64,000 nucleotides of DNA from the IMG/VR virus record IMGVR_UViG_3300044728_000133, one strand, 5' to 3'. Below, in pieces: positions 9,335-34,023 of this stretch. Source of the DNA: a virus. Its lineage: Duplodnaviria; Heunggongvirae; Uroviricota; Caudoviricetes. The translations under genes and the position numbers were made by a program. The notes under the pieces are model-generated. The model ran no database searches, was not told the origin of the DNA, and worked only from the letters and a program-made list of their open reading frames with translations. Numbering within the stretch: the first letter of the stretch is position 1; every line of letters begins with the position of its first letter.

Positions 9335-12352
<3,018 letters not shown>

Positions 12353-20082: not shown

Positions 20083-20282
20083 TCCTACCTCCTACTGCCG
20101 GTGCGGGCAGCCCGAGTGGCGGCGTAGCGCTCGCGGCGTTCCTCTTGCGCGCGCATGCGCTCCTGCCGCTTTTCCTCAATCGCGGCAGCCTCCTCAGCGG
20201 AGCGAGCAGTGGGCACGCTTGCGCCCTTGTCCTTGCAGCCACACGCCATGGCCGAGCAGCATAGGGACTCCGGATGACGGAG

Positions 20283-20642
20283 TTACTTGTCTTCGTCTTT
20301 AGCGAGCGTCTTGTGACCAGCGACTGCAAACGTTCCGAGGACGAAGAGAATGGCCGCTAGTTCCGTCCACTTCTGTGTGACTTCCCAGGCAGCCAGCCAG
20401 CCGACGCCGATCCAGAACCCCGCGCAGTACGGGCAGGTGAGCCAGAGAGCGAGGTCGAGACGGTAGAGCTCGCCGACCTCAGCCTCAGGTGTTCCTGCCT
20501 TCGCGCCTGCTCTCCACTCCTTGTTCAGACGAAGCAACCAGCGCCGCGGGCGATTCAGGATCGTGTCGAAAGCGATCAGCTGGAAAGCTCGCCAAGTGGC
20601 GACGCCGAGGATCGCAAGCGAGTACCAGTCGGGGACTTTCAC
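20283..20642 (-). CDS. membrane protein (3 predicted TM segments)
   Basis: 119 aa hydrophobic ORF. Confidence 0.5.
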   Translation of the reverse strand: MKVPDWYSLAILGVATWRAFQLIAFDTILNRPRRWLLRLNKEWRAGAKAGTPEAEVGELYRLDLALWLTCPYCAGFWIGVGWLAAWEVTQKWTELAAILFVLGTFAVAGHKTLAKDEDK

Positions 20643-20989
20643 GGGCGCCCCTCACAGTACAACTCGACTGGGATGTCGTGCTTCTCAGCGAGGTCGACCA
20701 TCATCGCGGTTCCGCTCGAGCGACCATCCCAGAAGGCAAGACAGAGATCAGCGCCAATCTCGGCCATTCTCCGGTTCCGGAGAAAACCAGCTCGCTTGCC
20801 GTAATACTCCCAGTCTGCCGGGTGCTCTTCGACAAGGAGTCCGAGCTTCTGCGCTTCTTGTCCGGCGATCCGATCTGCACCCCTCGCTGCTCCGTGAACG
20901 ATGACGGTGCCCGTCGGCAGGTCGAAGAGGCGATTGGCGATCGCATCACGGTCAGTCCACTCCCGAGATCCGCATACGATGACCCTCAC
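20639..20989 (-). CDS. DUF2493/SLOG-like Rossmann-fold protein
   Basis: C-terminal 116 aa of ORF 20639..21421: VRVIVCGSREWTD...TVIVHGAARGAD...; GTG start forms GTGA overlap with stop of upstream GT2 gene. Confidence 0.5.
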   Translation of the reverse strand: MRVIVCGSREWTDRDAIANRLFDLPTGTVIVHGAARGADRIAGQEAQKLGLLVEEHPADWEYYGKRAGFLRNRRMAEIGADLCLAFWDGRSSGTAMMVDLAEKHDIPVELYCEGRP

Positions 20990-21726
20990 TGCGCTCGTGC
21001 AGCGAGTTCGGCCCGCCACGGTTCGATCCCTGTGGGCCATGGCACCGAGGTGACGACCACCTGCTCGTCCGTGAAGAGGATCGACTGCAGATGCCTGTCC
21101 TGGTGGAACTTGCCCTGGTCGTGGACGAAGTAGCGCTCGGCGCGCGCGACACGCTCGGCCGTTCGCGTCCACCCAAAGTGAAAGACACTCGAGCCCGAGA
21201 TCTGGGACTTCGCCCGCCTTACCGCCAGCGGTTCTCGCCCACAGGCGAGCTTGCGATCGGGGATCATCCAGTTGCCCCCGAGACGTGCCGGAGCCTTCCA
21301 AAGGATCGGGCACTTCCTCGGCCCCCAGAGGCCGTCGACGCGCAAACACAGCTCTCGCTCCGAGCACATCCAGACCTCGTCCATCTGCAACGTGTAGACC
21401 GCCTCGCCCTTGGCCATGCACTCGCGCACGATCTCAGGGCTCCCCACGAACTCGTCTGCATCGATGGAGAGAACGTAGGTCGGGCTGGCCTCCATCGTCC
21501 ACATCAGAAGTCGGTTGCGTAGTTCTGACTCATGTTCCATGAAGGGCTTCCCGGCGTTCCCCCCCACGCTCACCCGATCCTGTCTGAGCAGATATTCGAA
21601 GGTGCCGTCTGTCGAACCGTCGTCGATGACGCGGATCTCGTCGCAGAAGCTGAGGAGGTGCGGAATGACGATGTCGAGGTAGCGCCCCATTTCGTTTTTG
21701 CAGACCATCGAAGCGACGAGTGTCAT
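20986..21726 (-). CDS. glycosyltransferase family 2
   Basis: internal start M107 of ORF 20986..22044 (SD ggaggga); MTLVASMVCKNEMGRYLDIVIPHLLSFCDEIRVIDDGSTDGT = GT2 N-terminal signature. Confidence 0.7.
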   Translation of the reverse strand: MTLVASMVCKNEMGRYLDIVIPHLLSFCDEIRVIDDGSTDGTFEYLLRQDRVSVGGNAGKPFMEHESELRNRLLMWTMEASPTYVLSIDADEFVGSPEIVRECMAKGEAVYTLQMDEVWMCSERELCLRVDGLWGPRKCPILWKAPARLGGNWMIPDRKLACGREPLAVRRAKSQISGSSVFHFGWTRTAERVARAERYFVHDQGKFHQDRHLQSILFTDEQVVVTSVPWPTGIEPWRAELAARAQ

Positions 21727-22481
21727 GCGATTCCCTCCCGGACGGGGCCGACCAGCTCGATGATGTCGTGAGGGATCCAACTCCAGTAAGGAGCAGAGAT
21801 CTTTTCGTACGGTGGCCAGTCCCGGTTCCAGCCGCGCTGCTTGTAGTAGGCGGTGAGGCTCAGCCATGGTTCCTCGGGGATCCTGTCGAGCTGTGGGCAG
21901 GGAATGTCTGGGGTGATCCAACCGCGGATCCAGCGGTACAGCTGCTGGTGCTCCGTCCACCCGAAGTAGCCGCGCACGGGAATCGGAGGAAGTTGCCTGA
22001 AGCGCTCGGCGTTCATGAGACCAACCCCGCCGATGTGCGTGCACTCCTCGAAGCCGAAGGCGCCGTCTAGGAGCACACCGTCACGTCCGGCCATCTTCGT
22101 CTGCCCCGCCTCCATTCCGAGCAGCTCAATCTCCTGAGAAGTCCAGACTGAGAGCATGTTCTCCAACCAGAACGGCGGCAAGGCGATGTCGTTGTCGATC
22201 TTCGCGAAGACGTCGCAGGCAGTGCGTTCGATGAAGTGGTTCATGAGGGCCGGCGGCGAGTGCAGCTTGGTATGCCACATCTCGATCTCGGGGTAGTTGC
22301 CGGAGCGGTTGAGCTCGACCACCTTCTCCGAGAGCCAGAACTTCGACTCCTTCCCCGACTCATCGTCGATGACCACCATCCTGGTGACGGCGTTCCAGTT
22401 CGTGTTCCGGATAAGCAGTTCGAAAGTGGCCTTGGTAAACGCGAGCCGCTCGCGTGCAGTGAAGAGGATCTCGAGGTTCAT
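21723..22481 (-). CDS. glycosyltransferase (GT-A like)
   Basis: 252 aa; VIDDESGKES and DNDIALPP DxD-type motifs; ATGA overlap with downstream GT2. Confidence 0.6.
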   Translation of the reverse strand: MNLEILFTARERLAFTKATFELLIRNTNWNAVTRMVVIDDESGKESKFWLSEKVVELNRSGNYPEIEMWHTKLHSPPALMNHFIERTACDVFAKIDNDIALPPFWLENMLSVWTSQEIELLGMEAGQTKMAGRDGVLLDGAFGFEECTHIGGVGLMNAERFRQLPPIPVRGYFGWTEHQQLYRWIRGWITPDIPCPQLDRIPEEPWLSLTAYYKQRGWNRDWPPYEKISAPYWSWIPHDIIELVGPVREGIA

Positions 22482-22642
22482 GGTTTCGTGTCTTGACTGC
22501 GTTCGTCTCGCTGTTCAGCCTCAAGCTGATCGAAGAACGCGTTCATCGCGCCCACCATCAGGCGCACCGTCTTCGTCAGTTCCTCGCGGAAGTTGGTAAC
22601 CAGCACGCGAGCGAGGTAATCAACCTGTGGGTTCTCGCTCAT
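22478..22642 (-). CDS. small hypothetical protein
   Basis: internal ATG (MSENPQVDY...) of ORF 22478..22816; ATGA overlaps. Confidence 0.4.
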   Translation of the reverse strand: MSENPQVDYLARVLVTNFREELTKTVRLMVGAMNAFFDQLEAEQRDERSQDTKP

Positions 22643-22836
22643 GCGTCCGGCTCTCGCTCTTGGCTTTGTGCTTTGCGCCGCCGAGATCCGAGGAGCATGT
22701 TCCCATCCTCGGAACCTGACGACCCACCCCAGCCGTGAACCTTCGCGCCCTTCTTGCTTGCTTCCATAGCGAACTCCGAGACAGCCCATGACGGGCCGTA
22801 GATCAGAAGTCGCCATTCACCGTCGCGGCGGTACAT
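22639..22836 (-). CDS. small hypothetical protein
   Basis: internal start of ORF 22639..23043; stop overlaps next start. Confidence 0.3.
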   Translation of the reverse strand: MYRRDGEWRLLIYGPSWAVSEFAMEASKKGAKVHGWGGSSGSEDGNMLLGSRRRKAQSQEREPDA

Positions 22837-22874
22837 CTTTCCGCGCACCGCAATTCCTGTCGGATCTTCAAGGC

Positions 22875-23135
22875 TCACGGCCTGTCCTCTTGGTTCGAGA
22901 CCGTGGTGACGGTCGCCCCGGTACAGCGAACGCAACACGGCATCGATGGAGCCATGACCGCGCCGCACTTCGGACAGACCCAGCCGCTCGGAGCGACGAC
23001 GGGTGGTGCCATAGGATTCGGATACGGCGTGAGCGGATTCCACGGCGCAGGGAATGTCCGAGGATGACGCCAGCAGCTACCGCTCGTTGACTGACGGCAC
23101 GCCTCGCACGTTCCGCCGTAGTAGGGAACGCTCAT
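22875..23135 (-). CDS. small Cys-rich (zinc-ribbon-like) protein
   Basis: internal start MSVPYYGGTCEAC... ; CPKCG, CCVRC motifs; ATGA overlap with 23132..23740. Confidence 0.4.
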   Translation of the reverse strand: MSVPYYGGTCEACRQSTSGSCWRHPRTFPAPWNPLTPYPNPMAPPVVAPSGWVCPKCGAVMAPSMPCCVRCTGATVTTVSNQEDRP

Positions 23136-23740
23136 GGCTCCTGCCTCGAAGCTGGAGCGTCCTCTTGGTATGAGGCGTTCGAGTTGGGAGGCAGGGCCAC
23201 CGTCTCGATGCCACACGTCATGCAGCGATACACACCAGCGTTTACCGGCAGACTCCATTCGTGCTCGTGCGGTTCAGAAGCTGGATCTCGTTCGCCGTAG
23301 AGCAGCCACAGCGTCCCGCTCACCTGAGTCTCGAACAGCGTCCCGTCGAACGAGCCCCCGTCGATGGCTTCCTTCACGGTGAGGGCGAGACGCTCTAGGA
23401 GTTGCTCCCGGGTCTGCTCACCGTTCGGGCTGTCCGCTGGAGAAGAGACACCTTCCAGCGCAGCGCGAGCGGTAGCAGCGATGCGCGTGGAAGTTGTCTG
23501 AACGAGGATTGATCGCAGCGCCCCCTGTGCCGTCTCCAACTGCTCTTCGATGCTCCGCAGTCGCTCCAGTTCCTTGACCGTCTCGTCAATGGCTGCGTCG
23601 AACCCGGCCTCAGCTTCTGCCAGTCCACGCACGACCTTACGAGCGATCACGTTTTCGAGGCACGCGACGTACCAGTTGACGCGATCCACCCACTCCTCTG
23701 CGTCTGTGCGGGGAACCGAATGTGGTGAAGAGGCGCTCAT
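23132..23740 (-). CDS. hypothetical protein
   Basis: 202 aa ORF; coiled-coil middle; C-terminal CMTCG. Confidence 0.55.
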   Translation of the reverse strand: MSASSPHSVPRTDAEEWVDRVNWYVACLENVIARKVVRGLAEAEAGFDAAIDETVKELERLRSIEEQLETAQGALRSILVQTTSTRIAATARAALEGVSSPADSPNGEQTREQLLERLALTVKEAIDGGSFDGTLFETQVSGTLWLLYGERDPASEPHEHEWSLPVNAGVYRCMTCGIETVALPPNSNASYQEDAPASRQEP

Positions 23741-23940
23741 GCGACCCTCTCCGGATTCTTCGGGTGATCCAGCAGCGTGATTCCGTCCATCGCCATGCGT
23801 CTGCGAGAGCAGCTAATTCCGTCCCGACACAACATGAGCCGCCGACCGTCGCGCTGCTTGCAGACCACGAGATCGTCAACCCGTCCGCAGCGAACGCAGA
23901 TGCGGTAGAGCGGACCGGAAGTCGGTGAAGAGGTGCTCAT
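23737..23940 (-). CDS. small zinc-finger protein
   Basis: 67 aa; CVRCG...C...C; ATGA overlaps both sides. Confidence 0.5.
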   Translation of the reverse strand: MSTSSPTSGPLYRICVRCGRVDDLVVCKQRDGRRLMLCRDGISCSRRRMAMDGITLLDHPKNPERVA

Positions 23941-24212
23941 CGCAGCGACCTCTTGAGGATGTCGGTAAACGAAGATCCGTCGAGCGCCTCCTCCCAGTAC
24001 GCACGCTCTGCTTCAAGTTTGGCGACATAGGCATCGTCGCTCCGGTCACCACGCTCCATGTCGTGTTCGACCTTGCGAACTGTGAGCGGGCACGGGTTGC
24101 CTTCCCCATGCGGTGGCACGCCCCAGGCAGCCGCCCCGCAGTGTCCGCACCAGACCCAAGTGTCGAGATCGTGCGGAGCCGAAGTCGGTTTGTGTTCCGT
24201 GGTCATCGCCAT
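23937..24212 (-). CDS. small Cys-containing protein (N-terminus MAMTTEHKPT)
   Basis: internal start of ORF 23937..24296; ATGA overlap; first 8 codons identical at DNA level to gene 38908..39165. Confidence 0.5.
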   Translation of the reverse strand: MAMTTEHKPTSAPHDLDTWVWCGHCGAAAWGVPPHGEGNPCPLTVRKVEHDMERGDRSDDAYVAKLEAERAYWEEALDGSSFTDILKRSLR

Positions 24213-24526
24213 GTCTTGACCACCGCCTCGGGGTGTGTCTCGCAGGCCGCGAGGTATTCCTCGGTGAATCGCACCAGGCCGTCGTAATCGCCCCATCCAT
24301 TCTCTGGGTTGAACTCTTGGAGCCTGTCCCTCTCAGTGATGAGGCGACCCAGACCGCGACGAAGCAGCGGGACAAGCTCAACTGCCTTCTCGACTGGGAT
24401 CTCCTCAGGTCGCCAAAGCGGCTTGTAGAGATCGACTTCGTCAGCCATGCGGCCCATGTTGTGCGTGATGTTCGCGGTGAACACCGTAGTTGGCCGGACT
24501 TCCTCCAGGTAGACGTCGAGGCTCAT
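24203..24526 (-). CDS. hypothetical protein
   Basis: 107 aa ORF. Confidence 0.55.
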   Translation of the reverse strand: MSLDVYLEEVRPTTVFTANITHNMGRMADEVDLYKPLWRPEEIPVEKAVELVPLLRRGLGRLITERDRLQEFNPENGWGDYDGLVRFTEEYLAACETHPEAVVKTWR

Positions 24527-24753
24527 CGATCATCCCTCGCTGGGATCTCGAACAACTTCTCCTCCTGAAGCGGAGCGGCGCGTTTGCGCGGGACCACCTC
24601 CGTTGCCTTCTCGGGGTAGTCGTGGATGTACGTGCACCTCGCGCAGTGCCAGAGACTGTTGATCACCGACTTCGAACCTGAGCCGAGGGACACGCCGCAG
24701 CCTGCGCAGTAAGGCTTGACCGGCTTCTTCGGGTTGCCACCTTGCATGCTCAT
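24523..24753 (-). CDS. zinc-ribbon protein
   Basis: 76 aa; CAGCG...CARC. Confidence 0.5.
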   Translation of the reverse strand: MSMQGGNPKKPVKPYCAGCGVSLGSGSKSVINSLWHCARCTYIHDYPEKATEVVPRKRAAPLQEEKLFEIPARDDR

Positions 24754-25097
24754 GAGTGAAGCCTCCTCGTCTCGAAGATGCCCACGAGATCGGGCTCGCG
24801 GAGCATCACAAGACGCGCGTAGTAGGAGTGGTAGTTGTTGTTCAGCTTGAAGTGGTCGCCGCCCGTGGCGAGGGTGTGCCGCCAGCGCAGAACCTCGAAG
24901 AGCATCTTCATGCCGATCTTGGTGGCGCCTCTGCGCTTCGCTCGCCGCGCGAGCATGACGATCTCCTGATAGACGTGGGGGTTCTCGCCATGGAAGCGGA
25001 GGAAAGCTTTCTCGATCGTCGGCTCCGGTTCCGGGCCGATGTGGCCCACCGGGTACTCGACGACGGGATAGGAGTCGAAGTCAAGCTGTTCGTTCAT
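24750..25097 (-). CDS. hypothetical protein
   Basis: 115 aa ORF. Confidence 0.55.
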   Translation of the reverse strand: MNEQLDFDSYPVVEYPVGHIGPEPEPTIEKAFLRFHGENPHVYQEIVMLARRAKRRGATKIGMKMLFEVLRWRHTLATGGDHFKLNNNYHSYYARLVMLREPDLVGIFETRRLHS

Positions 25098-25537
25098 ACG
25101 TGGGTCACCACCGTGAAGCGATCATCGAGGATGAGTGAAAGGGCAGGTCCGACGTCCTCCCACTTGAGCCCTCCCAGTCCGCATCCAGGACGCGGCATGA
25201 CCACCCGCTTCCAGCCGTAGTCTTCGGCGTACTCCACAAGTTCCCTGGTGGAGCGCTCGATGAGGTTGAGGTTGGAGGGATTGCTGACATCGTTCTTGGT
25301 CGGCATCGTCACGATCGCCTGCCGGGAGTCATAGTGGAAGACGTGGACGTGGTTGCCCTTGCTCTGCAGCCGGGCGCCCAGACAGCCCGGGAGCAAGGGG
25401 TAACGCTGAGCTGCTTCCCAGGCACAACCGCCGCCCATGATGTTCTCGCCGTTTCGCTTCACCGTCGAGTTCGTCGTGATCACGATCGCGTCGGCCGTCC
25501 TGCCGATCTTCCAGAGGTCACCTTTCGCTTCGATCAC
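25094..25537 (-). CDS. macro domain protein (ADP-ribose binding / ADP-ribosyl-hydrolase-like)
   Basis: 147 aa; DAIVITTNSTVKRNGENIMGGGCAWEAAQ and MPRPGCGLGGLKWEDV resemble macro-domain motifs (N-x-A-N...GGG..A; G-x-G phosphate loop). Confidence 0.55.
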   Translation of the reverse strand: MIEAKGDLWKIGRTADAIVITTNSTVKRNGENIMGGGCAWEAAQRYPLLPGCLGARLQSKGNHVHVFHYDSRQAIVTMPTKNDVSNPSNLNLIERSTRELVEYAEDYGWKRVVMPRPGCGLGGLKWEDVGPALSLILDDRFTVVTHV

Positions 25538-25627
25538 GCTCGTGCCATTCCCAGAGCATGAGCTTTGTCCAGCCCAAGCCGCCGAAGATGATGATCAAGA
25601 GCACGCTGAGGACGATCAGGTCACGGA

Positions 25628-26332
25628 TCATCGGGCGACCTGCTTCACCAGTTCGAGCATTCGTGTTCTCTCCTTTGTGTGATCTGCCTGCTTCCACATT
25701 CTGTTCGGATCGGAGTCCCAGGGCAAACGCTCATAGGACACGTCGACGAGTACGCGGGGGGTGAGAGCAGTGAAGACAATGTCGCAGGTGCGGAGCAACG
25801 AGGGCTGATCGTCAGGTAGGCCAGTGGGCTGCACACCGAACGCACGCGCGAACTTCCCGTGCGCTTTCTTCGGCGCATCCCGGTGGAAGCACGCCCCGAA
25901 ACCGACGAGCGCGTGCTCCTCGTAGAAGTCGTGCCGGAACTCGGGCGGCATGTTGCAGACAACGCCCTCAAACCAAAGCTGCTTCGGCGGCATATCGTCC
26001 AGCGCCCACCCGCATTTCGCCGTGTAGGCATTGACGATCGCCTGCGGATCACTCACGATCACGTCGTCGTCCTGAACGTAAATCAGATCGTGGGTTGCAT
26101 ACTCGATGGCGGCGTAGCGGCCGTAAACAGAGAGATCTCGCACGCGCTGTCCATCCCAGAACTCCTCAATCACCGTGTCGAGGTGGACTGGGAGAGGATA
26201 GTCCCGCTTTCGGATCGAGATTCTCCTCGCACCATTGTCCCAGATAACAACCTCCCACTTATCCGGGAGCGAATCGAGGATCTCGCCGAGATCATGGTCG
26301 CCACGGGTGACGATGATGGCGGTGACGTTCAC
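25628..26332 (-). CDS. putative glycosyltransferase-like protein (paralog A)
   Basis: 234 aa; IVTRGD...VWDNG...GRYAAIEYATHDLIYVQDDD...NRMWKQ; paralogous to 27483..28091. Confidence 0.5.
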   Translation of the reverse strand: MNVTAIIVTRGDHDLGEILDSLPDKWEVVIWDNGARRISIRKRDYPLPVHLDTVIEEFWDGQRVRDLSVYGRYAAIEYATHDLIYVQDDDVIVSDPQAIVNAYTAKCGWALDDMPPKQLWFEGVVCNMPPEFRHDFYEEHALVGFGACFHRDAPKKAHGKFARAFGVQPTGLPDDQPSLLRTCDIVFTALTPRVLVDVSYERLPWDSDPNRMWKQADHTKERTRMLELVKQVAR

Positions 26333-26658
26333 GCGGGCCTGCGGAACCAGATGATGTGGTTGCCGAATGAGTCCGACACGCCGAACGGCTCCCAGCCCTC
26401 GGTGAGGTGGAGCAGCACCTGATGCCCGCCCCAGCCCGCCGACTGGAACCTGATCTCGTAGACCTTGTGATGGCGCTGGTCAGCGCGCCGCCGCGTCCAC
26501 ACGCGGATCTGATTCAGGTCAGTCGTGTTGGGAACCGCGGAGACGCCGAACAGCTCGTAGCCGTCGTGAACGATGAACGACGCCTCGGAGCCGTTCCAGT
26601 GAATGTCGAAGGGCTGGATCTCCCAGTCGTGGCGCTTGCGGTGCCAAGGCCAGTTCAC
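26329..26658 (-). CDS. hypothetical protein
   Basis: 109 aa ORF, ATGA overlap. Confidence 0.5.
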   Translation of the reverse strand: MNWPWHRKRHDWEIQPFDIHWNGSEASFIVHDGYELFGVSAVPNTTDLNQIRVWTRRRADQRHHKVYEIRFQSAGWGGHQVLLHLTEGWEPFGVSDSFGNHIIWFRRPA

Positions 26659-26846
26659 GACGGCTCAGTCTCATCAGGGTCAAAGATGCGGAAGTCCATA
26701 CGCATCTCGTCTGTGATCGTTGCGCGAATAGCGTCGAGGTCGCTCTCGCCGCCGTCGATCCCCCATCCACCGTTTCGATGACTGATCCGGTTGAACACCT
26801 TGCGACCACGGAGGCGGTCAGCGAGCCACCACCGTATGCGACACAT
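26655..26846 (-). CDS. small hypothetical protein
   Basis: internal start of ORF 26655..27005. Confidence 0.3.
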   Translation of the reverse strand: MCRIRWWLADRLRGRKVFNRISHRNGGWGIDGGESDLDAIRATITDEMRMDFRIFDPDETEPS

Positions 26847-26884
26847 ACGCCAGCCCTCGTCGTCGCGGCAAGGCCGACGGTCAC

Positions 26885-27079
26885 TCACTTCGGCGCATCC
26901 TCGATTGGAGCATACGAGAGTGCGTCGGAGAGCACAGCATCGGGCAGCATCAGGTCGGAGTAGTCGTGCGTCTGGTCGAACCAGATCGCCTGGTGCACAG
27001 GCCACGCCGCCTTGACCACGTTCGAGTACGCCTTCGCGGTCGACGAGCGCATGATGGTTATCGGACCGAGACGAATCAT
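26885..27079 (-). CDS. small hypothetical protein
   Basis: 64 aa; ATGA overlap with 27076.. Confidence 0.45.
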   Translation of the reverse strand: MIRLGPITIMRSSTAKAYSNVVKAAWPVHQAIWFDQTHDYSDLMLPDAVLSDALSYAPIEDAPK

Positions 27080-27486
27080 TGAGGGCTAATCACTCCATTC
27101 ACCAAGTGGAACCCTCGGCCGGTGCGCTCCGAGAGCCAGTAGAGGGCGTCATTGCATGCCTGCCATTCGGAGGGTGTGGCGTGGAGCAGGTGCTGTTCCT
27201 CGTTGGGCTCGGCGCAGCGCACGCAGCCCTCGCGGTACATGCCCTGGACGATGAGCTTGACGCCGCAGTTCGTCATGAACTCGGCCTCGAGGGCTCGCCA
27301 CTTCGACTCTGACTCGATGGTGCCCTCCTGAGAGCGCGGCGGCGTCTGGTAGACCTGGCCGCAGCTGAGGCAGAGCCACTGCCACTCGCGCATGTACAGC
27401 TGGAAGATCAGGAGGGATCCGCAGTTGCAGATGCCAACTTGACCCAGCCTCCCGGAGTCGATCTGAAGCGCTTTGATGTCAATCAC
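27076..27486 (-). CDS. Cys-rich hypothetical protein
   Basis: GTG internal start with agga SD and GTGA overlap with upstream gene; CNCG, CLSCG, CVRC motifs. Confidence 0.5.
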   Translation of the reverse strand: MIDIKALQIDSGRLGQVGICNCGSLLIFQLYMREWQWLCLSCGQVYQTPPRSQEGTIESESKWRALEAEFMTNCGVKLIVQGMYREGCVRCAEPNEEQHLLHATPSEWQACNDALYWLSERTGRGFHLVNGVISPQ

Positions 27487-28091
27487 AGTCCTAGCTCCTT
27501 CCTCATGCGACGGCCGCGTGCCAGCCAAAACTCCGTCGCCTCGTAAAAGCCTGGTTGCTTCCACATTCTGTTCTCGCGCTCCAGCACCGGACCTTCCTGG
27601 TCGAGCCACTGGATGCCGTGCGTGATCGTCTTGTTGCGCGAGAGCACCGGGAAAATGATCTCTGCTCCCAGCCCGCGGTGCGGATTGCCGTTCTCTTCCC
27701 ATAGCTCGTGGACGGGGAAGTGAAGCCCGTACTTGAGAAACGCGGAGAGTGGCATTTCGCGATCGAAAATCGACCCCCAGCCGAGAAGCGTTGTGCCCTC
27801 ATAGCGGTGCAAACGGCCGGGATCATCGAAGGCGTTGCCGGTGACCACACCGGGTTCATACGCCGCCAGTAGTTCCTCGTGGCAGGTCACCAGGCAGTCA
27901 TCGTCTTGGAAGTAGATGACCGACTTGGTCGCCTCGAAGATCGCCATGTAGCGACCGAACACGCCGTAGTTCACGGGGCGCGTCGAGTTGTCCCAAACAA
28001 CGGTCTCTCCATAAGGCAGGCTGTCGATGATCGCCTGCATGTCGACGTCACCTCTCGTCACCAGGACGGCACTTACGTCATCGAAGGTCAT
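27483..28091 (-). CDS. putative glycosyltransferase-like protein (paralog B)
   Basis: 202 aa; LVTRGD...VWDNS...GRYMAIFEATKSVIYFQDDD...NRMWKQ. Confidence 0.5.
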   Translation of the reverse strand: MTFDDVSAVLVTRGDVDMQAIIDSLPYGETVVWDNSTRPVNYGVFGRYMAIFEATKSVIYFQDDDCLVTCHEELLAAYEPGVVTGNAFDDPGRLHRYEGTTLLGWGSIFDREMPLSAFLKYGLHFPVHELWEENGNPHRGLGAEIIFPVLSRNKTITHGIQWLDQEGPVLERENRMWKQPGFYEATEFWLARGRRMRKELGL

Positions 28092-28327
28092 TCGACCTCA
28101 TCCCAGGTCTCAAAAGAACCAGCATGGGGACGCCATTCGTGACCGATGTGTCCCTGGCAACGATTCCCGCCCGGAGAGACGGATGAACAACGAGCAGGGC
28201 AATCGTGACCCTTCAGACGAAAGCCGTCGCACTCAGTGCAGTATTCAGTCTCCCCCGGCTCGCCTCGGAGCACATCTCGTAGACCATCCGGCAAATCTTC
28301 CTCAGAAGCAGGTCCAAGGACTCTCAC
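28088..28327 (-). CDS. small Cys-rich protein
   Basis: 79 aa; CTECDG...C...C. Confidence 0.5.
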   Translation of the reverse strand: MRVLGPASEEDLPDGLRDVLRGEPGETEYCTECDGFRLKGHDCPARCSSVSPGGNRCQGHIGHEWRPHAGSFETWDEVE

Positions 28328-28896
28328 GCCCGCGCGACCAAGCCGTAACCGAGCGCGAAGTCGTAGCCAAGGTACTCGCCATCAGCAGATCCATGAACAA
28401 CTGCGCGGCGGTCGTGGCGAAGGATCGAGAACCCAGCCTCGATGAGCAGGCGCTCCATCCCGGCCTTCGTGAAGCGATGGAGATCGGCCTCTTGAACCTC
28501 AGGCCAGTTCGTCGGATACGTCATCACGAGCACGCCCACGCGGTCTGTTCTCCATGCACCCAACGTGTAGCCGAGACGCCGGATGAAGCCCTCGTAGTTC
28601 GGGACGTACTGGAGGACCTGGGTGCAGAGGATGGTGTCCCAGAGGTTGCCGTATGCCCAGAAGTCGTACCGAGCCAACTCAGGATTCACGTCCCCGCCCT
28701 GGTTGACCGGGTTGCTCTCCAGGTCGAACCCGGTGTACTCACCCCCGTGCTCCTCGACGATCCGGCGATAGGGGCTTGTTCCGCAGCCATAGTCGAGGAC
28801 ACGTCCCTTGAAGTAGCCCTCGTCGGCCACGCTGTTCAGGAACTTGCGGATGGAATCGTTCTCGAGTTCGGTGAGCAAGTCGGTCACTTGAACCAC
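28324..28896 (-). CDS. class I SAM-dependent methyltransferase
   Basis: 190 aa; VLDYGCGTSPY motif I. Confidence 0.7.
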   Translation of the reverse strand: MVQVTDLLTELENDSIRKFLNSVADEGYFKGRVLDYGCGTSPYRRIVEEHGGEYTGFDLESNPVNQGGDVNPELARYDFWAYGNLWDTILCTQVLQYVPNYEGFIRRLGYTLGAWRTDRVGVLVMTYPTNWPEVQEADLHRFTKAGMERLLIEAGFSILRHDRRAVVHGSADGEYLGYDFALGYGLVARA

Positions 28897-29159
28897 TCCT
28901 CGGGAGCACGCTCGCCCTTGTAGTAGTCGACGACCCCTGCCAGCGGAGTGGGGACGGTCTTGCGCAGACCGATGAAGCGAATCGGCGGCGGTCCCCCCAT
29001 CGGACTGGGTCCCTGGCTCGACCAGTCTCCGACAACGATGAATCCTGCGGCGAGCGCTCGCTTCAGCGTTTCGTCATGCCCTGTGATAATGACCGCTGCA
29101 TTGTGCTGGACGGCTGTCTCCCTCGTGGCTGCCTGGGCACGCAATTCGTAATCGCTCAT
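28884..29159 (-). CDS. hypothetical protein
   Basis: internal start MSDYELRAQ... of ORF 28884..29465; ATGA overlap with PIG-L gene. Confidence 0.45.
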   Translation of the reverse strand: MSDYELRAQAATRETAVQHNAAVIITGHDETLKRALAAGFIVVGDWSSQGPSPMGGPPPIRFIGLRKTVPTPLAGVVDYYKGERAPEEWFK

Positions 29160-29707
29160 GCCAAGTACTCCTTCATGTTCTCGGCGAAGTGCCGATACGA
29201 GGGTGTCCGCGCCTGCGAGCCATAACAGGCCAGGGCGGCGTGCTTCTGGAAGAGCCAGGCCGGTTCGTACTCGATCTCGGTTCCGTCCGTCGAACGGACG
29301 AGTGGCGGATTCGTGTACGTGAGGTAGTGCTCGACTTGCACGTCTGCGAACACGGTGTCGGCCAGGCTGGCGATCAGGTTGTGCTGAACGTTCCCGTTCG
29401 GCTCGAAGGCGGGAGCGAAGATGGCATCCCAGTCGTCCTCCCCAGCCGGATCGCGCAGGCCCCACATGAACGCCTCGACCTCATCGTCGGAGGCGTAGCG
29501 ATCGCCGAGAGGCCACTGTCGCCATGCGCAGCCGAGGATGGACATGGCCCGTTCGGTCTCGGCCTCGCGCACCCCAGCCGGGACACCGAAATCGTCCTGT
29601 TGTTCGGAGCGGAAGCAGATGACGACGAGCGGCCTGTAACGCAGACAGAGGAAGCTCGCGAAGAGCGCTTCGTCGTCGGAGTGTGGAGCGAACAGGAGCG
29701 CCCTCAT
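29156..29707 (-). CDS. PIG-L/LmbE family N-acetylglucosaminyl deacetylase
   Basis: internal start MRALLFAPHSDDEALF (HPDDE-type motif); ATGA overlap. Confidence 0.65.
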   Translation of the reverse strand: MRALLFAPHSDDEALFASFLCLRYRPLVVICFRSEQQDDFGVPAGVREAETERAMSILGCAWRQWPLGDRYASDDEVEAFMWGLRDPAGEDDWDAIFAPAFEPNGNVQHNLIASLADTVFADVQVEHYLTYTNPPLVRSTDGTEIEYEPAWLFQKHAALACYGSQARTPSYRHFAENMKEYLA

Positions 29708-30204
29708 GAGTGCACCAAGCGGATGGCGACCTCTGGCACGTACACCTCGGGGCCGCGCAACTCTGACTTCACGACGTAGAGGGCCACCTGGCCGAATGCC
29801 TCGAAGTAGCCCGGGGTCCAATCGCCCTCGCCGTACATGTTCGAGCCACCGCTGCCCGCCTGAGTGATGCCGTATTGCTTGCGTACCTGACCGACCACGA
29901 CACCACTGCCTTCGTGCTCCCACTGGAAGATTGTCTTGTTGCGCTTCTCCCAGCGCTCCTCACTCACGGGATATCGACGGCGCTTGTTCGTGTCGAGTTC
30001 AACGAGTTCCTCAAGAGTGGCGAAGACGAACGGCGTTACGCATGTCATCACAACCAGGCCGTCGCCTCTGATGGTCGCGTTCATCTTCTTGGGCTCAGTA
30101 AGCTCCCACTGGCCCCACTTCCGTGCCTCGCCTATGCCGTGTGGACTCCGACGAGCGACGCCGGCTCGATGGGTGAAGGTGACGTGTGAGCCCAGGGCGA
30201 TCAT
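29704..30204 (-). CDS. hypothetical protein
   Basis: 166 aa ORF. Confidence 0.55.
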   Translation of the reverse strand: MIALGSHVTFTHRAGVARRSPHGIGEARKWGQWELTEPKKMNATIRGDGLVVMTCVTPFVFATLEELVELDTNKRRRYPVSEERWEKRNKTIFQWEHEGSGVVVGQVRKQYGITQAGSGGSNMYGEGDWTPGYFEAFGQVALYVVKSELRGPEVYVPEVAIRLVHS

Positions 30205-30530
30205 GAGACCTTCTTCCGGACGCCCACCCGCGTGAGCATGGTCAGAACGATGTCGTCGCCCAGTGGATCGCGCTTCACGATGAAGCCATAGTCGTCATCG
30301 CACTGGACGAAACGTTGCCCGCCGGGCAGCTGGCGATTTTTCCTCCCGTAGAGCACGAAGCCCTCGGGCCTGTGGTTGAAGACGCGTCCCTCGGCGATCG
30401 CCTTCTCAACGCAATCATGGATCTCCTGCTCGACTACTCGGAACGGACGCTTGTCGACTGCCCGGACGTGCTGGCGATTGCGGAGCGCCTCAGTCGCGTG
30501 ATGCGAAACGAGGATTGATCTGCTGGCCAT
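30201..30530 (-). CDS. hypothetical protein
   Basis: start at second ATG (MASRSILV) 6 nt after aaaggag SD. Confidence 0.5.
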   Translation of the reverse strand: MASRSILVSHHATEALRNRQHVRAVDKRPFRVVEQEIHDCVEKAIAEGRVFNHRPEGFVLYGRKNRQLPGGQRFVQCDDDYGFIVKRDPLGDDIVLTMLTRVGVRKKVS

Positions 30531-30595
30531 GGACATCTCCTTTCTACTGGTCTCCCTCCGCATCCCGCCAGAGAGATGCGGAGGGACAACCAGCT

Positions 30596-30862
30596 CTAGA
30601 CGGTCGGACGACCAAGCGGCCCGTCGGGACCGTCGAGATCTTCCTCTTCAGGCGGTGTAGCCGTGAACGTGACCTTCGAGATAACGAAAACGCGCTGCAG
30701 GCTGGACGCAAGAGTCACCCAGATCGACCCCAAGGACCATGTTGGGTTCTTCTCGATGGCCTTGCTTGCAGCGTCCTCGACGTCTTCGGCATCGACTCGC
30801 ATGTGCGCTTTCGTGTAGCCACCGTTCGATTCATAGAGAACGACGTACTCGTTCATGCTCAT
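30596..30862 (-). CDS. hypothetical protein
   Basis: 88 aa ORF. Confidence 0.5.
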   Translation of the reverse strand: MSMNEYVVLYESNGGYTKAHMRVDAEDVEDAASKAIEKNPTWSLGSIWVTLASSLQRVFVISKVTFTATPPEEEDLDGPDGPLGRPTV

Positions 30863-31080
30863 GAGTCTTTACGGTACGCCGTCGTCGACTGGTAGTCAGG
30901 ATCAGCTGGGGTGCGCCCGGCCCAGTCGCGTGGTTCCAGAGGGGGAGCTTCCCCCTTCTGGATGCTGTCGCCCCAGCGGCGCTTCGCCTTCGTGCTGCGA
31001 GCGAAGACCCAGGGCACGATGGCAAAGGCCACGATGATCACGATCAGGGCGATGAAGGAGAGCTCGAGTGCCCGTCCCAT
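30859..31080 (-). CDS. small membrane protein
   Basis: start MGRALELSFIALIVIIVAFAIV with aaaggagg SD; single TM. Confidence 0.5.
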   Translation of the reverse strand: MGRALELSFIALIVIIVAFAIVPWVFARSTKAKRRWGDSIQKGEAPPLEPRDWAGRTPADPDYQSTTAYRKDS

Positions 31081-31229
31081 CACGCCTCCTTTCCGAAGAG
31101 AGCTTCCCAGACCGGCATGCAACCCTCGCCCTTCGGCTCCCAGGGGCCGACCGGCGGGAGCGGGATCTCGGGCATCCAGTCACGCGGGCTGAAGAACAGC
31201 TTGAGTTCCTTCAGGAACTGCCTAGCCAT
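31080..31229 (-). CDS. small hypothetical protein
   Basis: internal start MARQFLKELK with gaaggag SD. Confidence 0.3.
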   Translation of the reverse strand: MARQFLKELKLFFSPRDWMPEIPLPPVGPWEPKGEGCMPVWEALFGKEA

Positions 31230-31542
31230 AGGTGTCTCCTTCTGTGATGCCAAGCCACTCACTCTTGTCCAGGCGCTTACTGCAGAACGTCCCATCGCCG
31301 CGTTCGACGGCAATGTAGTACCGCGTGCTCCCCGAAGGGAAGGTGACGCCTCCACTGACGACGCCCACACCAGGCTTGTACTCCGTGTATGTCTTGGTGA
31401 CCTTGCCGATGCAGCCACTCCCGGCAACGCCCTCCTCCCCGCCGCAACCAACGAGGAGGAGAACGATGGCAATGACGGCCATGACGACAGCCGCGACGAC
31501 TAGACCGACGGTCAGCCGATCACGTATCTGAACGAAGATCAC
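31222..31542 (-). CDS. putative lipoprotein/membrane protein
   Basis: 106 aa; hydrophobic N-terminus ending LLLVGCGG lipobox-like. Confidence 0.5.
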   Translation of the reverse strand: MIFVQIRDRLTVGLVVAAVVMAVIAIVLLLVGCGGEEGVAGSGCIGKVTKTYTEYKPGVGVVSGGVTFPSGSTRYYIAVERGDGTFCSKRLDKSEWLGITEGDTYG

Positions 31543-32447
31543 TTGCCCTGTCCGAGGAGCGACGAAGGAAGGAGGAAGTTCGAGCCTGCCGGAAGCAGCA
31601 CGACCTGCACGTTCGGGTTCAGCTTGTCGATCGCGTACTTCTGAATCAAGAGCGGGGTCAACGTCTGGCGCTGGAGCCGCTGTGCCTTCGCCTGGCCGCG
31701 AGCAAGCGCGATGGCCTGCTTCGCCTCAGCGTTGGCTGTCCGCACTCGGTTCTGAGCTGCCTTCGCCTCCTGTGTGGCGATCTGCTTGTCCTCGATCGCC
31801 TTCGTGAACTCCGGCGAGAACTTGATGTTGTCGACGAGGAGGTCATCGATCTGGATCGAGAACGGAGCCAGTTCCGCCTTCAGCGCCTTGAGCACGTTCT
31901 TGCGGATCCTCTCGCGGTTGGGGGCGATCTGGATGGCGGTGTACTTCACCGTCTCATCCTTGAAGATCTGGTTCAGTCGCGTCGGCACCAGCTTGTCGAA
32001 GTAGCCCGGTCCGACGTTGCGGTACAGATCCTGGATGTCGGAGGGCGATACCTCATAGTTGATGGTGGCCTTGATGAACACGTCCTGCGTCTCCGAGGTG
32101 AAGGAATCCAGCTCGTCGAAGGACGCACGCTGCACCTGGGTGTTGGCCTCGACCAGCTTCTGCCAGGGCAGCGTGGTGACGAGCCCCGCGTCAGTCTGGC
32201 CGACGATGTTCCCGAACTGGTAGACGACTCCAACGTGGCCGGCGGCGACGGAGTGGAAGCTCCGCTGGATCGACCACAGTCCAAAGATCACAACGAATAC
32301 GAGGACGCTCCCCCACTTGAGGGCGGCACCGAGGTCATGGCGTTCCTTGTCGCCATCAACCTCTGCTTGCTTCTTCATCTGCCGCCCGACAGAGAACACC
32401 GACAGGCAGACGACGAGAAGAATGACCGAGCACAATACGTAGAACAC
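31539..32447 (-). CDS. SPFH/band-7 (prohibitin/HflKC-like) domain membrane protein
   Basis: 302 aa; GHVGVVYQFGNIVGQTDAGLVTTLPW core, N-terminal TM, C-terminal coiled coil; GTG start with ggaggt SD. Confidence 0.7.
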   Translation of the reverse strand: MFYVLCSVILLVVCLSVFSVGRQMKKQAEVDGDKERHDLGAALKWGSVLVFVVIFGLWSIQRSFHSVAAGHVGVVYQFGNIVGQTDAGLVTTLPWQKLVEANTQVQRASFDELDSFTSETQDVFIKATINYEVSPSDIQDLYRNVGPGYFDKLVPTRLNQIFKDETVKYTAIQIAPNRERIRKNVLKALKAELAPFSIQIDDLLVDNIKFSPEFTKAIEDKQIATQEAKAAQNRVRTANAEAKQAIALARGQAKAQRLQRQTLTPLLIQKYAIDKLNPNVQVVLLPAGSNFLLPSSLLGQGK

Positions 32448-32721
32448 GGTTACCTCCGGTTAGCGGAACGAGACGCTGGTAACTCTACCACCGTTCCCGC
32501 TAGGATTGGCAAGCGGGCGCTGGCGCCAACTGCGGGCGAGACAACACCTTCGGGTGCCTTCCATGGTTGCGTCAGTGCCCGCTCTTGTGTACTCTCCCGC
32601 AGTCGAACGCATGCTGCGTCTCAGCCAGAGACTCTGACCTCGACCGTGGCGGTCGAGAGGGATGGAAAGCAAGTCGGGGAAGCGCACCCGACAAGTGACC
32701 AGGAGGCGGTTCGGCAACTTT

Positions 32722-32752
32722 GAGGGGCTCTTCGGGGCCCCTCTCTGTTTTC
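32722..32752 (+). terminator. intrinsic terminator-like hairpin (gaggggc...gcccctc) followed by tctgttttct
   Basis: GC stem about 7 bp plus U-rich tract on plus strand in noncoding 32448..32843. Confidence 0.45.
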
Positions 32753-32768
32753 TCCGTTTCCGGAGAAT
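32747..32768. repeat. copy of 22-bp palindrome family (TTTTCTCCGTTTCCGGAGAATC), only copy inside minus-arm island
   Basis: matches consensus GATTCTCCGG-N3/4-CGGAGAATC. Confidence 0.7.
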
Positions 32769-32843
32769 CAAGCCGAAGCGTAACTTTGGATATGGACGAA
32801 ACTACCCAAAGATCCATCCGAACAACAACTATAAGATCTACTC

Positions 32844-33338
32844 GTGGCGCTCAAAGAACGATTCTGGGCCAAGGTTGAAAAAACCAACGGAGACGAATGT
32901 TGGAAGTTCACCGGCTACTGCGCCCGCTCCGGCTACGGCTACATCTGGTCAGGCGAGTATTACCCGAGTGGAGCACCACGAATTCTCCGCGCCCATCGAG
33001 TCTCCTGGCTCTTCGCGTTCGGCCCCATCCCTGACGGGACCCAGGTTCTTCATCGCTGCGACAACCCGCCATGCGTACGTCCTGATCATCTCTTCCTGGG
33101 AACACCCGCGACGAATGCCGCAGACAAGATCCAGAAACAGCGTGCCTCACAACTGCAAGGAGAAAGAAACCCAGCAGCTCGACTCACCATCGACCAGGTC
33201 ACCGCCATCCGCGCAGATCACAAGGGACGCTATGGAGATACCAAGCGGCTAGCCGAGCAGTACGGAGTGGCTCCCTCGACGATCAGCGCCGTAGTGCATG
33301 GAGTGAACTGGTCTTCCACAATGGTCGCCGACGCTTGA
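32844..33338 (+). CDS. HNH homing endonuclease (HNH_3/AP2-type with C-terminal HTH), antisense to neighbours
   Basis: 164 aa; HRVSWLFAFGPIPDGTQVLHRCDNPPCVRPDHLFLGTPATN; overlaps 3' end of GT gene 33283..34023. Confidence 0.75.
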   Translation: MALKERFWAKVEKTNGDECWKFTGYCARSGYGYIWSGEYYPSGAPRILRAHRVSWLFAFGPIPDGTQVLHRCDNPPCVRPDHLFLGTPATNAADKIQKQRASQLQGERNPAARLTIDQVTAIRADHKGRYGDTKRLAEQYGVAPSTISAVVHGVNWSSTMVADA

Positions 33339-34023
33339 AGATTGCGTTGTCCTCAAAGGGAGTGCTCAGGGCCTTCTCGTAAGTTTTGTCCATCGGGCTC
33401 TTTGGGATCCCGTTTCTGTCTCTCCAGAACGGATGCAGGTGCTCGACGTGTGAGTCCATCGCGAACGTCCACTGGCCACGAGCCTTCGCCGTCTCGCACA
33501 GCTCGGTGTCGACCCATTGATGCTGGTAGCCCTCGTGCAGAACCTTGCCCTCTTCGTCGATCGTTCCGTACTCGTCGATGTAGGAGCGGCGAACGAGGGG
33601 ATGCGTCGAGTGGAGCCCGCGCATGACGGTCGCGTTGCCGAGGTCGTTGGTGCCGATCACTCCGGCGCCGGTCTGCCGGGCGACCTCTAGCGCAGCGATA
33701 TGCCATCCGCCGTGGAACTCAAGGTCGGTGGCGCCGAGGAGCATGAAGTCTTCGGTCGTCTCGCGGTAGCCGAGGTTGATCTTCTTCGCCCAGTCACCAG
33801 GACCGGCCTCCCAGGGAACCTCGATCACTCGGATTCGCTCATCGAGCGCGTACTCAGCCATGACCCGGGCAACTGCGGTTCGGCCCTCGTCGTCGCCAGG
33901 AGAACAGAGAAAGAGGAGAGACCAGGGGACCTGATGCTCTTGAGTTCGACGGATGCTGCGAGTGAGACGAGTGACGGACTCACCGCGCGCGAGCACCGGA
34001 ACGAGGATGGCGATCGAGTTCAT
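33283..34023 (-). CDS. putative glycosyltransferase (nucleotide-diphospho-sugar transferase fold)
   Basis: 246 aa; AILVPVLARGESVTRL...LFLCSPGDDEG... Confidence 0.5.
   Translation of the reverse strand: MNSIAILVPVLARGESVTRLTRSIRRTQEHQVPWSLLFLCSPGDDEGRTAVARVMAEYALDERIRVIEVPWEAGPGDWAKKINLGYRETTEDFMLLGATDLEFHGGWHIAALEVARQTGAGVIGTNDLGNATVMRGLHSTHPLVRRSYIDEYGTIDEEGKVLHEGYQHQWVDTELCETAKARGQWTFAMDSHVEHLHPFWRDRNGIPKSPMDKTYEKALSTPFEDNAIFKRRRPLWKTSSLHALRR

Follow-up and report, generated by a model that had tools for sequence, protein, structure and literature searches.

A conserved cassette of predicted glycosyltransferases, a deacetylase and a methyltransferase between the terminase and portal genes of uncultured actinophage-like viruses

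Introduction

Glycosylation of phage virions was reportedly first shown by Freeman et al. in 2023, in a few mycobacteriophages carrying two to four glycosyltransferases (GTs). Gene clusters of Mimivirus are likewise said, from the work of Piacente, Notaro, Abergel and De Castro, to glycosylate the fibrils of the virion. In bacteria, the collagen-like exosporium glycoprotein BclA of Bacillus anthracis is O-glycosylated at many sites in its G-X-Thr (GPT) repeats, with a glycan that starts from an N-acetylhexosamine (HexNAc) and includes methylated sugars. Here we describe a stretch of 64,000 nucleotides from a tailed phage (Caudoviricetes; IMG/VR record IMGVR_UViG_3300044728_000133; one strand, 5' to 3'), referred to below as the window, in which the genes for the large terminase subunit (TerL) and the portal are separated by an interval predicted to encode five GT-A glycosyltransferases, one deacetylase and one methyltransferase. 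A first-pass annotation, made from the letters alone, had taken this region for an accessory island. We find instead that the seven genes, termed the cassette, recur in related environmental phages, where they may serve to glycosylate virion proteins.

The virion O-glycosylation systems of Che8, Corndog and Myrna resemble the cassette in consisting of soluble actinophage GTs, in some cases accompanied by methyltransferases, for which the decoration of capsid and tail proteins has been proposed or shown (cited through PMC12363180 and PMC13313380), and the host phylum is probably the same. Che8 differs in having three annotated GTs as against five GT-A enzymes plus a PIG-L deacetylase and a methyltransferase, which bears out the first-pass claim of more GTs than in mycobacteriophages. 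Its genes lie at the right end of the genome rather than between TerL and portal, and for the cassette of the window glycosylation is a prediction. The Mimivirus clusters share with the window a virus-encoded, multi-gene glycan pathway of lineage-variable content and, on the reading proposed here, the decoration of the particle surface; however, giant viruses encode their own synthesis of nucleoside diphosphate (NDP) sugars, and neither synteny nor detectable sequence homology with the window was seen. Unlike Mimivirus with its own synthesis, only some relatives of the window carry sugar-nucleotide genes (epimerase, aminotransferase, formyltransferase). BclA finds a likeness in a fibre of 1005 amino acids (aa) encoded by the window, with 135 G-X-T triplets, but BclA is a bacterial spore protein, the phage fibre is a speculative glycan carrier, and collagen-like fibres also accompany another type of cassette.

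Two further systems use related enzymes on other acceptors. GT-A and GT-B enzymes from metaviromes glycosylate 5-hydroxymethylcytosine (5hmC) formed by C5 methyltransferases (C5-MTs) and TET-like enzymes (Pyle, Lund, O'Toole and Saleh, 2023; bioRxiv 10.1101/2023.12.21.572611). As in the window, these GT-A enzymes resemble those of lipopolysaccharide (LPS) and teichoic acid, are often paired or accompanied by epimerases, and sometimes lie near terminase or structural genes; however, the clusters are defined by a neighbouring C5-MT with 5mYOX/TET or ThyS, and neither the window nor about 100 related loci have any of these beside the cassette. The Staphylococcus aureus TarP and the Gtr O-antigen systems are also phage-borne GT-A enzymes, and TarP is among the top structural matches of the GT encoded nearest TerL in the window. 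These systems consist of single GTs, or of GtrABC trios with membrane parts, in temperate phages and outside the structural operon, whereas the window has seven soluble enzymes in a late operon and showed neither an integrase nor a flippase; a soluble, TarP-like GT is compatible by fold.

Results

Coordinates refer to the window, and genes lie on the minus strand unless a plus strand is given. The first recognisable gene of the cassette after TerL, GTt (33283-34023), is predicted to encode a GT of GT-A fold on both profile and fold evidence. Its Glycos_transf_2 score of 19.9 bits falls under the 23.3 cutoff and it matches the GT family phrog_14945 at 8e-7, while a Foldseek search with its AlphaFold2 (AF2) model (predicted local distance difference test, pLDDT, 94.2) returns SpsA (1.8e-8), then TarP, RmlT, TarS, K4CP and ppGalNAc-Ts, and in BFVD it matches viral GT2s, the best structural match being a GT2 of the Mimivirus lineage (TM-score 0.78). 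The metal motif keeps the invariant D100 and has T-D where the family consensus is D-D. GTt is the most conserved gene of the cassette, with 737 homologs, and follows TerL in both of the cassette types (A and B, below) found among relatives.

Two further GTs, pair-GT B (27483-28091; DDD at residues 63-65) and its paralog pair-GT A (25628-26332; DDD at residues 88-90; BLASTP 3e-22, 30% identity), are small enzymes of an unannotated family that numbers at least 464 proteins and has an invariant T-x-G-D ... DDD signature (D63-65). Neither has a Pfam or PHROG match, and the family profile has none among PDB sequences; the AF2 model of pair-GT B (pLDDT 95.9) nevertheless adopts a GT-A fold, with Foldseek matches to ppGalNAc-T2 (2e-4), EXTL2 (query TM-score, TMq, 0.63), GtrB and TarP. 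Tandem copies of the pair-family GT are seen in some viral contigs, three in L029 and L032 and two in L018, L023 and L031, and suggest that this small family has been duplicated repeatedly.

GTm (21723-22481; DND at residues 96-98) is a predicted GT2-like GT-A enzyme whose Glycos_transf_2 score (17.1 bits) is likewise under the 23.3 cutoff; a profile of its family (24 homologs, D96 and D98 invariant) matches the chondroitin synthase K4CP at 6.8e-9, heparosan synthase, DPMS and SpsA. The fifth, the GT2_4 glycosyltransferase (20986-21726), scores 36.7 bits against a cutoff of 27.5 for Glyco_tranf_2_4 and carries a DDGS nucleotide-sugar motif and DAD at residues 89-91. The top Foldseek matches of the AF2 GT models in the PDB were GT-A enzymes, save for a few nucleotidyltransferases of lower probability (e.g. 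RmlA). No transmembrane (TM) segment was found in the cassette GTs, and an NCBIfam scan of ten key proteins gave no matches.

The deacetylase (29156-29707) is assigned to the PIG-L/LmbE family of N-acetylglucosamine (GlcNAc)-conjugate deacetylases. Its PIG-L (PF02585) score of 29.0 bits is borderline against a cutoff of 28.2, but the profile of its family matches the LmbE-related BC1534 (2ixd) at 3e-8, BshB at 9e-6, TT1542 at 2e-5 and chitobiose deacetylase, and the zinc-site residues (PHxDD ... H) H9, D11, D12 and H109 do not vary among 21 phage homologs. To our knowledge all characterised enzymes of this family, among them PIG-L, MshB, BshB and the deacetylases of teicoplanin and chitobiose, act on GlcNAc that is already in glycosidic linkage, as in GlcNAc-PI, GlcNAc-inositol, GlcNAc-malate, the GlcNAc of teicoplanin and chitobiose. 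The seventh gene (28324-28896) encodes a predicted class-I S-adenosylmethionine (SAM) methyltransferase (Methyltransf_23, 41.2 bits against a cutoff of 27; VLDYGCGTS motif) and in the loci of relatives adjoins the PIG-L or a pair-GT gene.

All seven of these assignments had been proposed in the first-pass annotation, including the paralogy of the pair, with profile searches named as the check. Pfam places GT2_4, the methyltransferase and PIG-L above cutoffs and leaves GTm and GTt below them and the pair-GTs without a match; it is the family profile for GTm, and the predicted GT-A folds of GTt and of pair-GT B, that carry the remaining assignments. The proposal of an enzyme set for a multi-sugar glycan is upheld to the extent that profiles and models support enzymes that together could assemble and tailor an oligosaccharide. 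A mycothiol- or bacillithiol-like small-molecule pathway, which would combine a GT with an LmbE protein, was considered and set aside, because the GTs are GT-A and not GT4, number five, and have no cysteine ligase with them.

To follow the cassette through related viruses, a census was made of 80 IMG/VR loci, picked solely for a pair-family gene, together with L016 (81 loci), searched with every protein of the window. Within 10 kb, GTm was found in 44 loci, PIG-L in 34, the methyltransferase (MT) in 29, GT2_4 in 29, the portal in 22, GTt in 19 and TerL in 16, and throughout the 81 loci the cassette genes were co-oriented and mostly in the same order. About 25 loci are colinear, in the order TerL, GTt, PIG-L, MT, pair, GTm, GT2_4, (DUF1360), portal, MuF, a 140-aa gene and the major capsid protein (MCP), and the gene orders of L103 and L016 agree with this. 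In L016, a JGI contig of 136.6 kb, TerL (48% identical) is followed by GTt (54%), PIG-L (47%), pair-B (59%), the methyltransferase (48%), an extra NDP-sugar epimerase, the ortholog of pair-GT A (52%), GTm (40%), GT2_4 (47%) and DUF1360.

Because the same gene set recurs in dozens of related environmental phages, the cassette appears to be a conserved, vertically inherited glycan-building locus and not a one-off insertion. The first-pass view of an accessory island finds no support in this colinearity, nor does the base composition favour it: the window has 62% GC overall, uniform along its length (0.60-0.63), with no compositional mark of a foreign island. The cassette also seems to be known only from metagenomes, since tblastn against 50,697 GenBank phage records gave no full-length match: GTt, pair-GT and PIG-L found nothing and a fourth cassette protein, a GT, a single partial match.

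By portal, the closest IMG/VR relatives of the window (L009, L011, L013 and L014, at 43-47% identity) appeared by tblastn to have kept only GTt and DUF1360 and to lack a glycan cassette; this was rejected when Pfam revealed a different cassette there, which we call type B, the window having type A. Type B gaps hold two to three Glycos_transf_2 genes, an NAD-dependent NDP-sugar epimerase/dehydratase and a peptidoglycan (PG)-binding/M23 protein, to which L009 adds an Asn-synthase-like gene and two class-I methyltransferases. On a neighbour-joining (NJ) tree of portals the type B loci form one clade nested within the diversity of type A, and because of this the type A cassette appears to be ancestral and to have been replaced once, with the flanking genes retained. 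Frequent swapping of cassettes was rejected on the same single clade. As a side observation, the protein with PG_binding_1 and/or Peptidase_M23 domains lies upstream of DUF1360 and portal (L009 8112-9593, L014 4953-6527, L013 8917-9507), has no counterpart in the interval of the window, and might act as a lysin or as a peptidoglycan hydrolase of the virion.

The cassette is also found in a structurally unrelated, HK97-like siphophage lineage (L104, L017, L034, L039, L041, L044, L048, L060, L062, L069, L070, L084 and L091). Here the set comprises GT2a, two genes of unknown function, PIG-L, the methyltransferase, a pair-GT, GT2b and sometimes GT2_4, and has a capsid-side gene at one end and head-tail connector, head-closure and gp10-like genes at the other. 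L104 and L017 differ in that the tail chaperone and the probable tape measure gene enclose it, and L104 adds a DegT sugar aminotransferase. A further arrangement, TerL, sugar formyltransferase, DUF6625, pair-GT, GT2, DUF1360 and portal, is found in L105.

The interval that houses the cassette in the window runs from TerL (34636-36357; tblastn identity of 29-33% over more than 80% of the length to annotated TerL, at most 33% to known terminases, and a weak Terminase_6C match) to the portal (18184-20082; phrog_776 at 4e-79, with tblastn matches to actinophage portals). From portal start to TerL stop there are 14,553 nt and about 34 minus-strand genes, close to the 33 genes counted in the first-pass annotation, and 20 of the 30 gene junctions of the interval have 4-nt overlaps; such packing is operon-like, as expected for one translationally coupled late operon. 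The seven glycan enzymes take up 32% of the interval, so that their supposed dominance holds in the sense that they are the largest functional group and fails numerically.

The first-pass annotation had also stated that TerL and portal are normally contiguous, which was not borne out among cultured phages with a related portal and capsid module. The gap is 0.37 kb in Odyssey395 (one membrane protein), 0.8 kb in Sunfish (three small genes), 1.6 kb in Cooper (four small genes), 6 kb in Tonitrus (twelve genes) and 15 kb in Clawz (38 genes, including RusA, DnaE-like and ParB-like). These cultured relatives repeatedly encode a small membrane protein ahead of the portal, its counterpart in the window being the DUF1360 protein (20283-20642; 38.2 bits), which precedes the portal in relatives as a conserved downstream anchor and is separated from it in the window by an ORF of 54 aa (20085-20249). 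Because the gaps of cultured relatives vary widely and this membrane protein recurs, the junction appears to be a long-standing, variable cargo bay in the phage lineage of the window. Gaps of about 7-11 kb are implied in the roughly 25 colinear loci, among which the 14.5 kb of the window is the largest; its locus appears to have been enlarged by the second pair-GT paralog and by cargo genes.

Among the latter, the YAcAr/DUF2493 SLOG-family protein (20639-20989; PF10686, 50.5 bits, the same Pfam family being given by an independent gene call), the Macro-domain protein (25094-25537; 28.4 bits against a cutoff of 22; near the cassette in 0 of the 81 loci) and the SPFH/Band-7 membrane protein (31539-32447; Band_7, 104 bits; N-terminal hydrophobic segments), which is not a glycan enzyme, all match Pfam above cutoffs as the first reading had them. 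A putative lipoprotein (31222-31542), recognised by its lipobox LLVGC and its hydropathy, has a segment 78% identical in L075/L078, and these two of the 81 loci are the only ones that share the SPFH and lipoprotein genes. The small ORFs and the Macro and SLOG genes are mostly unshared with relatives, and together with the SPFH/lipoprotein genes appear to be cargo around a conserved enzymatic core. The more than ten small Cys-rich or zinc-ribbon proteins of the first-pass annotation reduce to about seven small proteins with CxxC motifs, and its minus-strand ORFs at 32460-33150 carry no coding signal; an HNH homing endonuclease gene lies there on the plus strand (32844-33338; HNH_3, 50.3 bits; zf-His_Me_endon, 27 bits), antisense within the late operon, breaking the gene chain between GTt and SPFH, with a strong hairpin adjoining it at 32722-32743. 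Two small ORFs separate TerL from GTt. No flippase-family (Wzx/GtrA-type) Pfam match was found among the ORFs of the interval, and no GtrC among the ORFs scanned.

Below about 48 kb, as far as position 1, the window is transcribed from the minus strand, and plus-strand early genes begin at about 48.8 kb. No tRNAs were found, no NDP-sugar or other nucleotide-sugar synthesis genes are encoded in the window, no ORF of the window that was scanned matched an integrase, and the part of the genome that was scanned showed no repressor. Megablast of the window and of the interval against GenBank phages gave no DNA-level match, and identical proteins were seen only in metagenome assemblies (Logan SRR35357606/7 and a JGI contig of 90,168 bp). 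Contigs of the uncultured clade are mostly of about 86-107 kb, with one of 137 kb. The cultured relatives of the portal are all actinophages, at 23-28% identity (of Curtobacterium, Rhodococcus, Gordonia, Arthrobacter, Microbacterium and Mycobacterium cluster B), and a profile search of genome contigs gave seven loci, mostly phage contigs binned into metagenome-assembled genomes (MAGs), including one binned phage contig with the cassette in an Actinomycetes MAG and a separate MAG contig of 363 kb with a pair-family gene. The portal relatives, a GP88-family protein, the high GC and the two Actinomycetes MAG contigs are suggestive of a host that is probably in the Actinomycetota.

In the right arm, plus-strand genes encode an ArdC-N and zincin anti-restriction-like protein (48873-49709), a mycobacteriophage GP88-family protein (50858-51526) and two C5 cytosine DNA methyltransferases (55561-57381 and 57658-58422), one of them 606 aa long, with an HNH_3 homing endonuclease bearing a NUMOD4 motif (55085-55576) directly upstream of a C5 methyltransferase gene. 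Matches to 'Serglycin' were dismissed as an artefact of scanning ORFs concatenated by a GS linker, only the HNH, NUMOD4 and zf matches being real. Upstream of TerL lie genes for a 376-aa protein with sigma-factor/helix-turn-helix-like PHROG matches (36893-38023) and for a 194-aa protein (36287-36871) that is kept beside TerL in four relatives (L051, L075/L078 and L096); one or the other product may be the small terminase subunit.

Downstream of the portal follow a MuF/protease-like gene (16562-18184), a gene for a 140-aa protein (15898-16320; 29-58% identity in most related loci) and the MCP gene (14026-15777), whose product has an acidic, (E-P)n-containing N-terminal segment of about 170 residues (EPTPEPDPEPEPEPEPE...) that is probably a scaffold-like delta domain. 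The 140-aa protein has no Pfam, NCBIfam or hhalign match, and the idea that it is a hidden GT was rejected when hhalign to the pair family proved negative. Further along, 9335-12352, at first expected from its position to be the tape measure gene, encodes instead the collagen-like fibre. Of its 268 G-X-Y triplets, 135 have Thr in the Y position and 50 in the X position, and Thr makes up 21% of the protein. The real tape measure protein (1288 aa) is encoded past the left edge of the window, among tail genes (L109 10242-14108). The adjacent fibre-region protein of 654 aa (7336-9300) has an extremely Gly-rich C-terminal third, with up to 11 consecutive Gly; after it come Laminin_G_3, beta-helix and GHL15-like proteins (5937-7331, 4607-5887 and 3086-4606), an array suggestive of glycan-binding or glycan-degrading tail appendages. 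Beside the fibre genes, the flanking GT of the first-pass annotation (1628-2338) is possibly a sixth GT-A-like gene: a weak Glycos_transf_2 match remains (16.5 bits, with DND and GEDLSF discerned by eye), below cutoff and without a match among PDB sequences. The FkbM-like methyltransferase proposed at 1-325 is not upheld, as the likeness is a motif resemblance by eye, the fragment has no Pfam match at E<0.01, and the full product of 187 aa has no recorded Pfam family or PDB match. Just past position 1 of the window, on the late strand between fibre and tail genes, lies a gene for a GT4 of 403 aa (L109 5630-6841; Glycos_transf_1, GT-B fold).

Discussion

On the grounds of genomic context we propose, with a probability that we put at roughly 0.5, that the cassette is a late-expressed pathway that glycosylates virion proteins. 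According to this model, its genes would be co-transcribed with the late morphogenesis operon, and the donors would likely be drawn from nucleotide-sugar pools of the host, for example UDP-GlcNAc and UDP-hexoses, because the window encodes no enzyme for their synthesis. One GT would place a GlcNAc-type sugar on the acceptor, PIG-L would then de-N-acetylate the attached GlcNAc to glucosamine (GlcN), the other GTs would lengthen the chain, and the methyltransferase would cap or decorate it. The likeliest acceptors would be virion proteins, such as the Thr-rich collagen-like fibre, a speculative candidate, or capsid and tail subunits, and the outcome would be a glycosylated particle like that of the glycosylated mycobacteriophages. 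The enzyme identities, the operon-like packing and the conserved synteny of the cassette are taken from the sequences; the order of reactions, the identities of the sugars and the acceptor are inferred.

Several observations favour this model. The cassette lies inside late structural operons, at three positions and in two lineages with unrelated virion genes; further GT genes stand among the fibre and tail genes (the weak candidate at 1628-2338 and the GT4 past the left edge); and the GTs are soluble, with no flippase or integrase among the ORFs scanned. There is also precedent: in mycobacteriophages, both capsid and tail-tube subunits carry glycans added by phage GTs (Freeman et al., 2023, as related in PMC12363180).

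A number of observations weigh on the other side. The MCP has no Ser/Thr-rich C-terminal extension, no S/T-rich C-terminal tail of the MCP or of the 218-aa or 275-aa proteins was found to co-vary with the cassette, the S/T/P-rich tail of the 218-aa protein being equally present in type B relatives, and collagen-like proteins occur with the other cassette type as well. The cassette GTs have no homology to gp108-110 of Che8 (hhalign probabilities of 0.1-9%), about 80 of the roughly 90 kb of the genome were inspected, and, since the same bay holds DNA-metabolism genes in cultured relatives, a gene's place in the bay is in itself no indication of a role in the virion. Finally, a bacterial homolog of the pair-GTs in a Wzx-type cell-wall polysaccharide cluster, and the likeness of GTt to the teichoic-acid GTs TarP, TarS and RmlT, would fit an acceptor in the cell envelope.

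These last two points lead to the possibility that the cassette remodels a glycopolymer of the host envelope (a wall polysaccharide, a teichoic-acid-like polymer or a lipoglycan) in the manner of TarP or Gtr, which would block superinfection or the loss of virions to debris. The pair-GT homolog in question, P0093, is encoded on a probable actinobacterial contig together with three GT4 enzymes, a GT2, a Wzx-like flippase and an FkbM methyltransferase, and among the best structural matches of GTt are the enzymes of wall teichoic acid noted above; the interval also encodes the SPFH protein, the lipoprotein, small TM proteins and DUF1360, and the same bay of type B relatives holds the PG-binding/M23 peptidase. 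However, the SPFH and lipoprotein genes fall outside the conserved core, the scanned part of the genome has no integrase or repressor and the interval no GtrA, GtrC or flippase, and the cassette genes sit within, and are closely tied to, late structural operons of two lineages with unrelated virion genes, which would be poor timing for altering an existing wall in a lytic cycle. We regard remodelling of the envelope as unlikely.

A distinctly smaller chance attaches to the GTs hypermodifying phage DNA, for instance 5hmC derived from phage C5-methylcytosine, with the deacetylase and methyltransferase tailoring the DNA-linked glycan. The precedent is the glycosylation of 5hmC by phage GT-A enzymes related to those of LPS and teichoic acid, some of them encoded beside terminase or structural genes, and GT and epimerase pairs constitute one class of such pathways (bioRxiv 10.1101/2023.12.21.572611). 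Moreover, the window encodes its two C5 cytosine methyltransferases, and Tonitrus has Tet-like and aGPT-Pplase2 genes a few kb upstream of its terminase gene. Against this, such pathways are usually clustered (bioRxiv 10.1101/2023.12.21.572611), whereas the C5 methyltransferases of the window lie more than 21 kb from the cassette, on the other arm and strand, and in other loci only one short match to them stands beside the cassette. Pfam and PHROG scans of the window ORFs found no 5mYOX/TET or thymidylate-synthase-like hydroxymethylase, precomputed Pfam annotation of about 15 kb beyond the window edges had no TET, 5mYOX or ThyS, the 20-kb contexts of L016, L104 and L105 had none either, and tblastn with the Tet-like protein of Tonitrus gave no match in the window or in about 100 loci.

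That the bay is instead a mosaic of unrelated morons, its GT, deacetylase and methyltransferase genes independent or decaying, as might be supposed from the unrelated genes that fill it in cultured relatives, from the small ORFs without assigned function, not found in relatives, that make up most of its roughly 34 genes and from its invasion by a homing endonuclease, is very improbable and largely refuted by the synteny census, since the seven enzymes co-occur, co-orient and keep their order down to about 30% portal identity and across two structural lineages, with catalytic residues invariant within each family.

Returning to the glycosylation of virion proteins, a wider and more tentative proposal can be made. 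An uncultured actinophage-like clade may keep a dedicated particle-glycan locus in which conserved flanks (TerL with GTt, DUF1360 with portal) bracket alternative inner cassettes, either PIG-L/methyltransferase/pair-GT or GT2/epimerase, with aminotransferase and formyltransferase variants in other lineages, so that the particles, perhaps by way of Thr-rich collagen-like fibres, would bear lineage-specific oligosaccharides of glucosamine and methylated sugars. This arrangement recalls bacterial O-antigen and capsule loci, where conserved flanks likewise enclose alternative sets of GT and tailoring genes; the locus of the window differs in being viral, in lacking Wzx/Wzy/Wzz and an initiating phosphoglycosyltransferase, and in the single replacement evident on the portal tree.

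Phage-encoded glycosylation as such is known; the cassette uses GT families that BLAST does not find in cultured phages and a deacetylase/methyltransferase tailoring pair, and several unannotated GT-A families together with this pair gain a defined genomic context. Should the target prove to be DNA or the host wall, the conserved cassette would nonetheless represent a new multi-enzyme system from a lineage without a cultured member. If it does build particle glycans, it would parallel, in a virus, the O-antigen serotype loci of bacteria, with consequences for adsorption, for stability in the environment, for escape from host defences and antibodies, and for engineering actinophages as therapeutics. 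In soil actinophages, complex glycan coats on the virion would then be both widespread and ancient, and would be diversifying.

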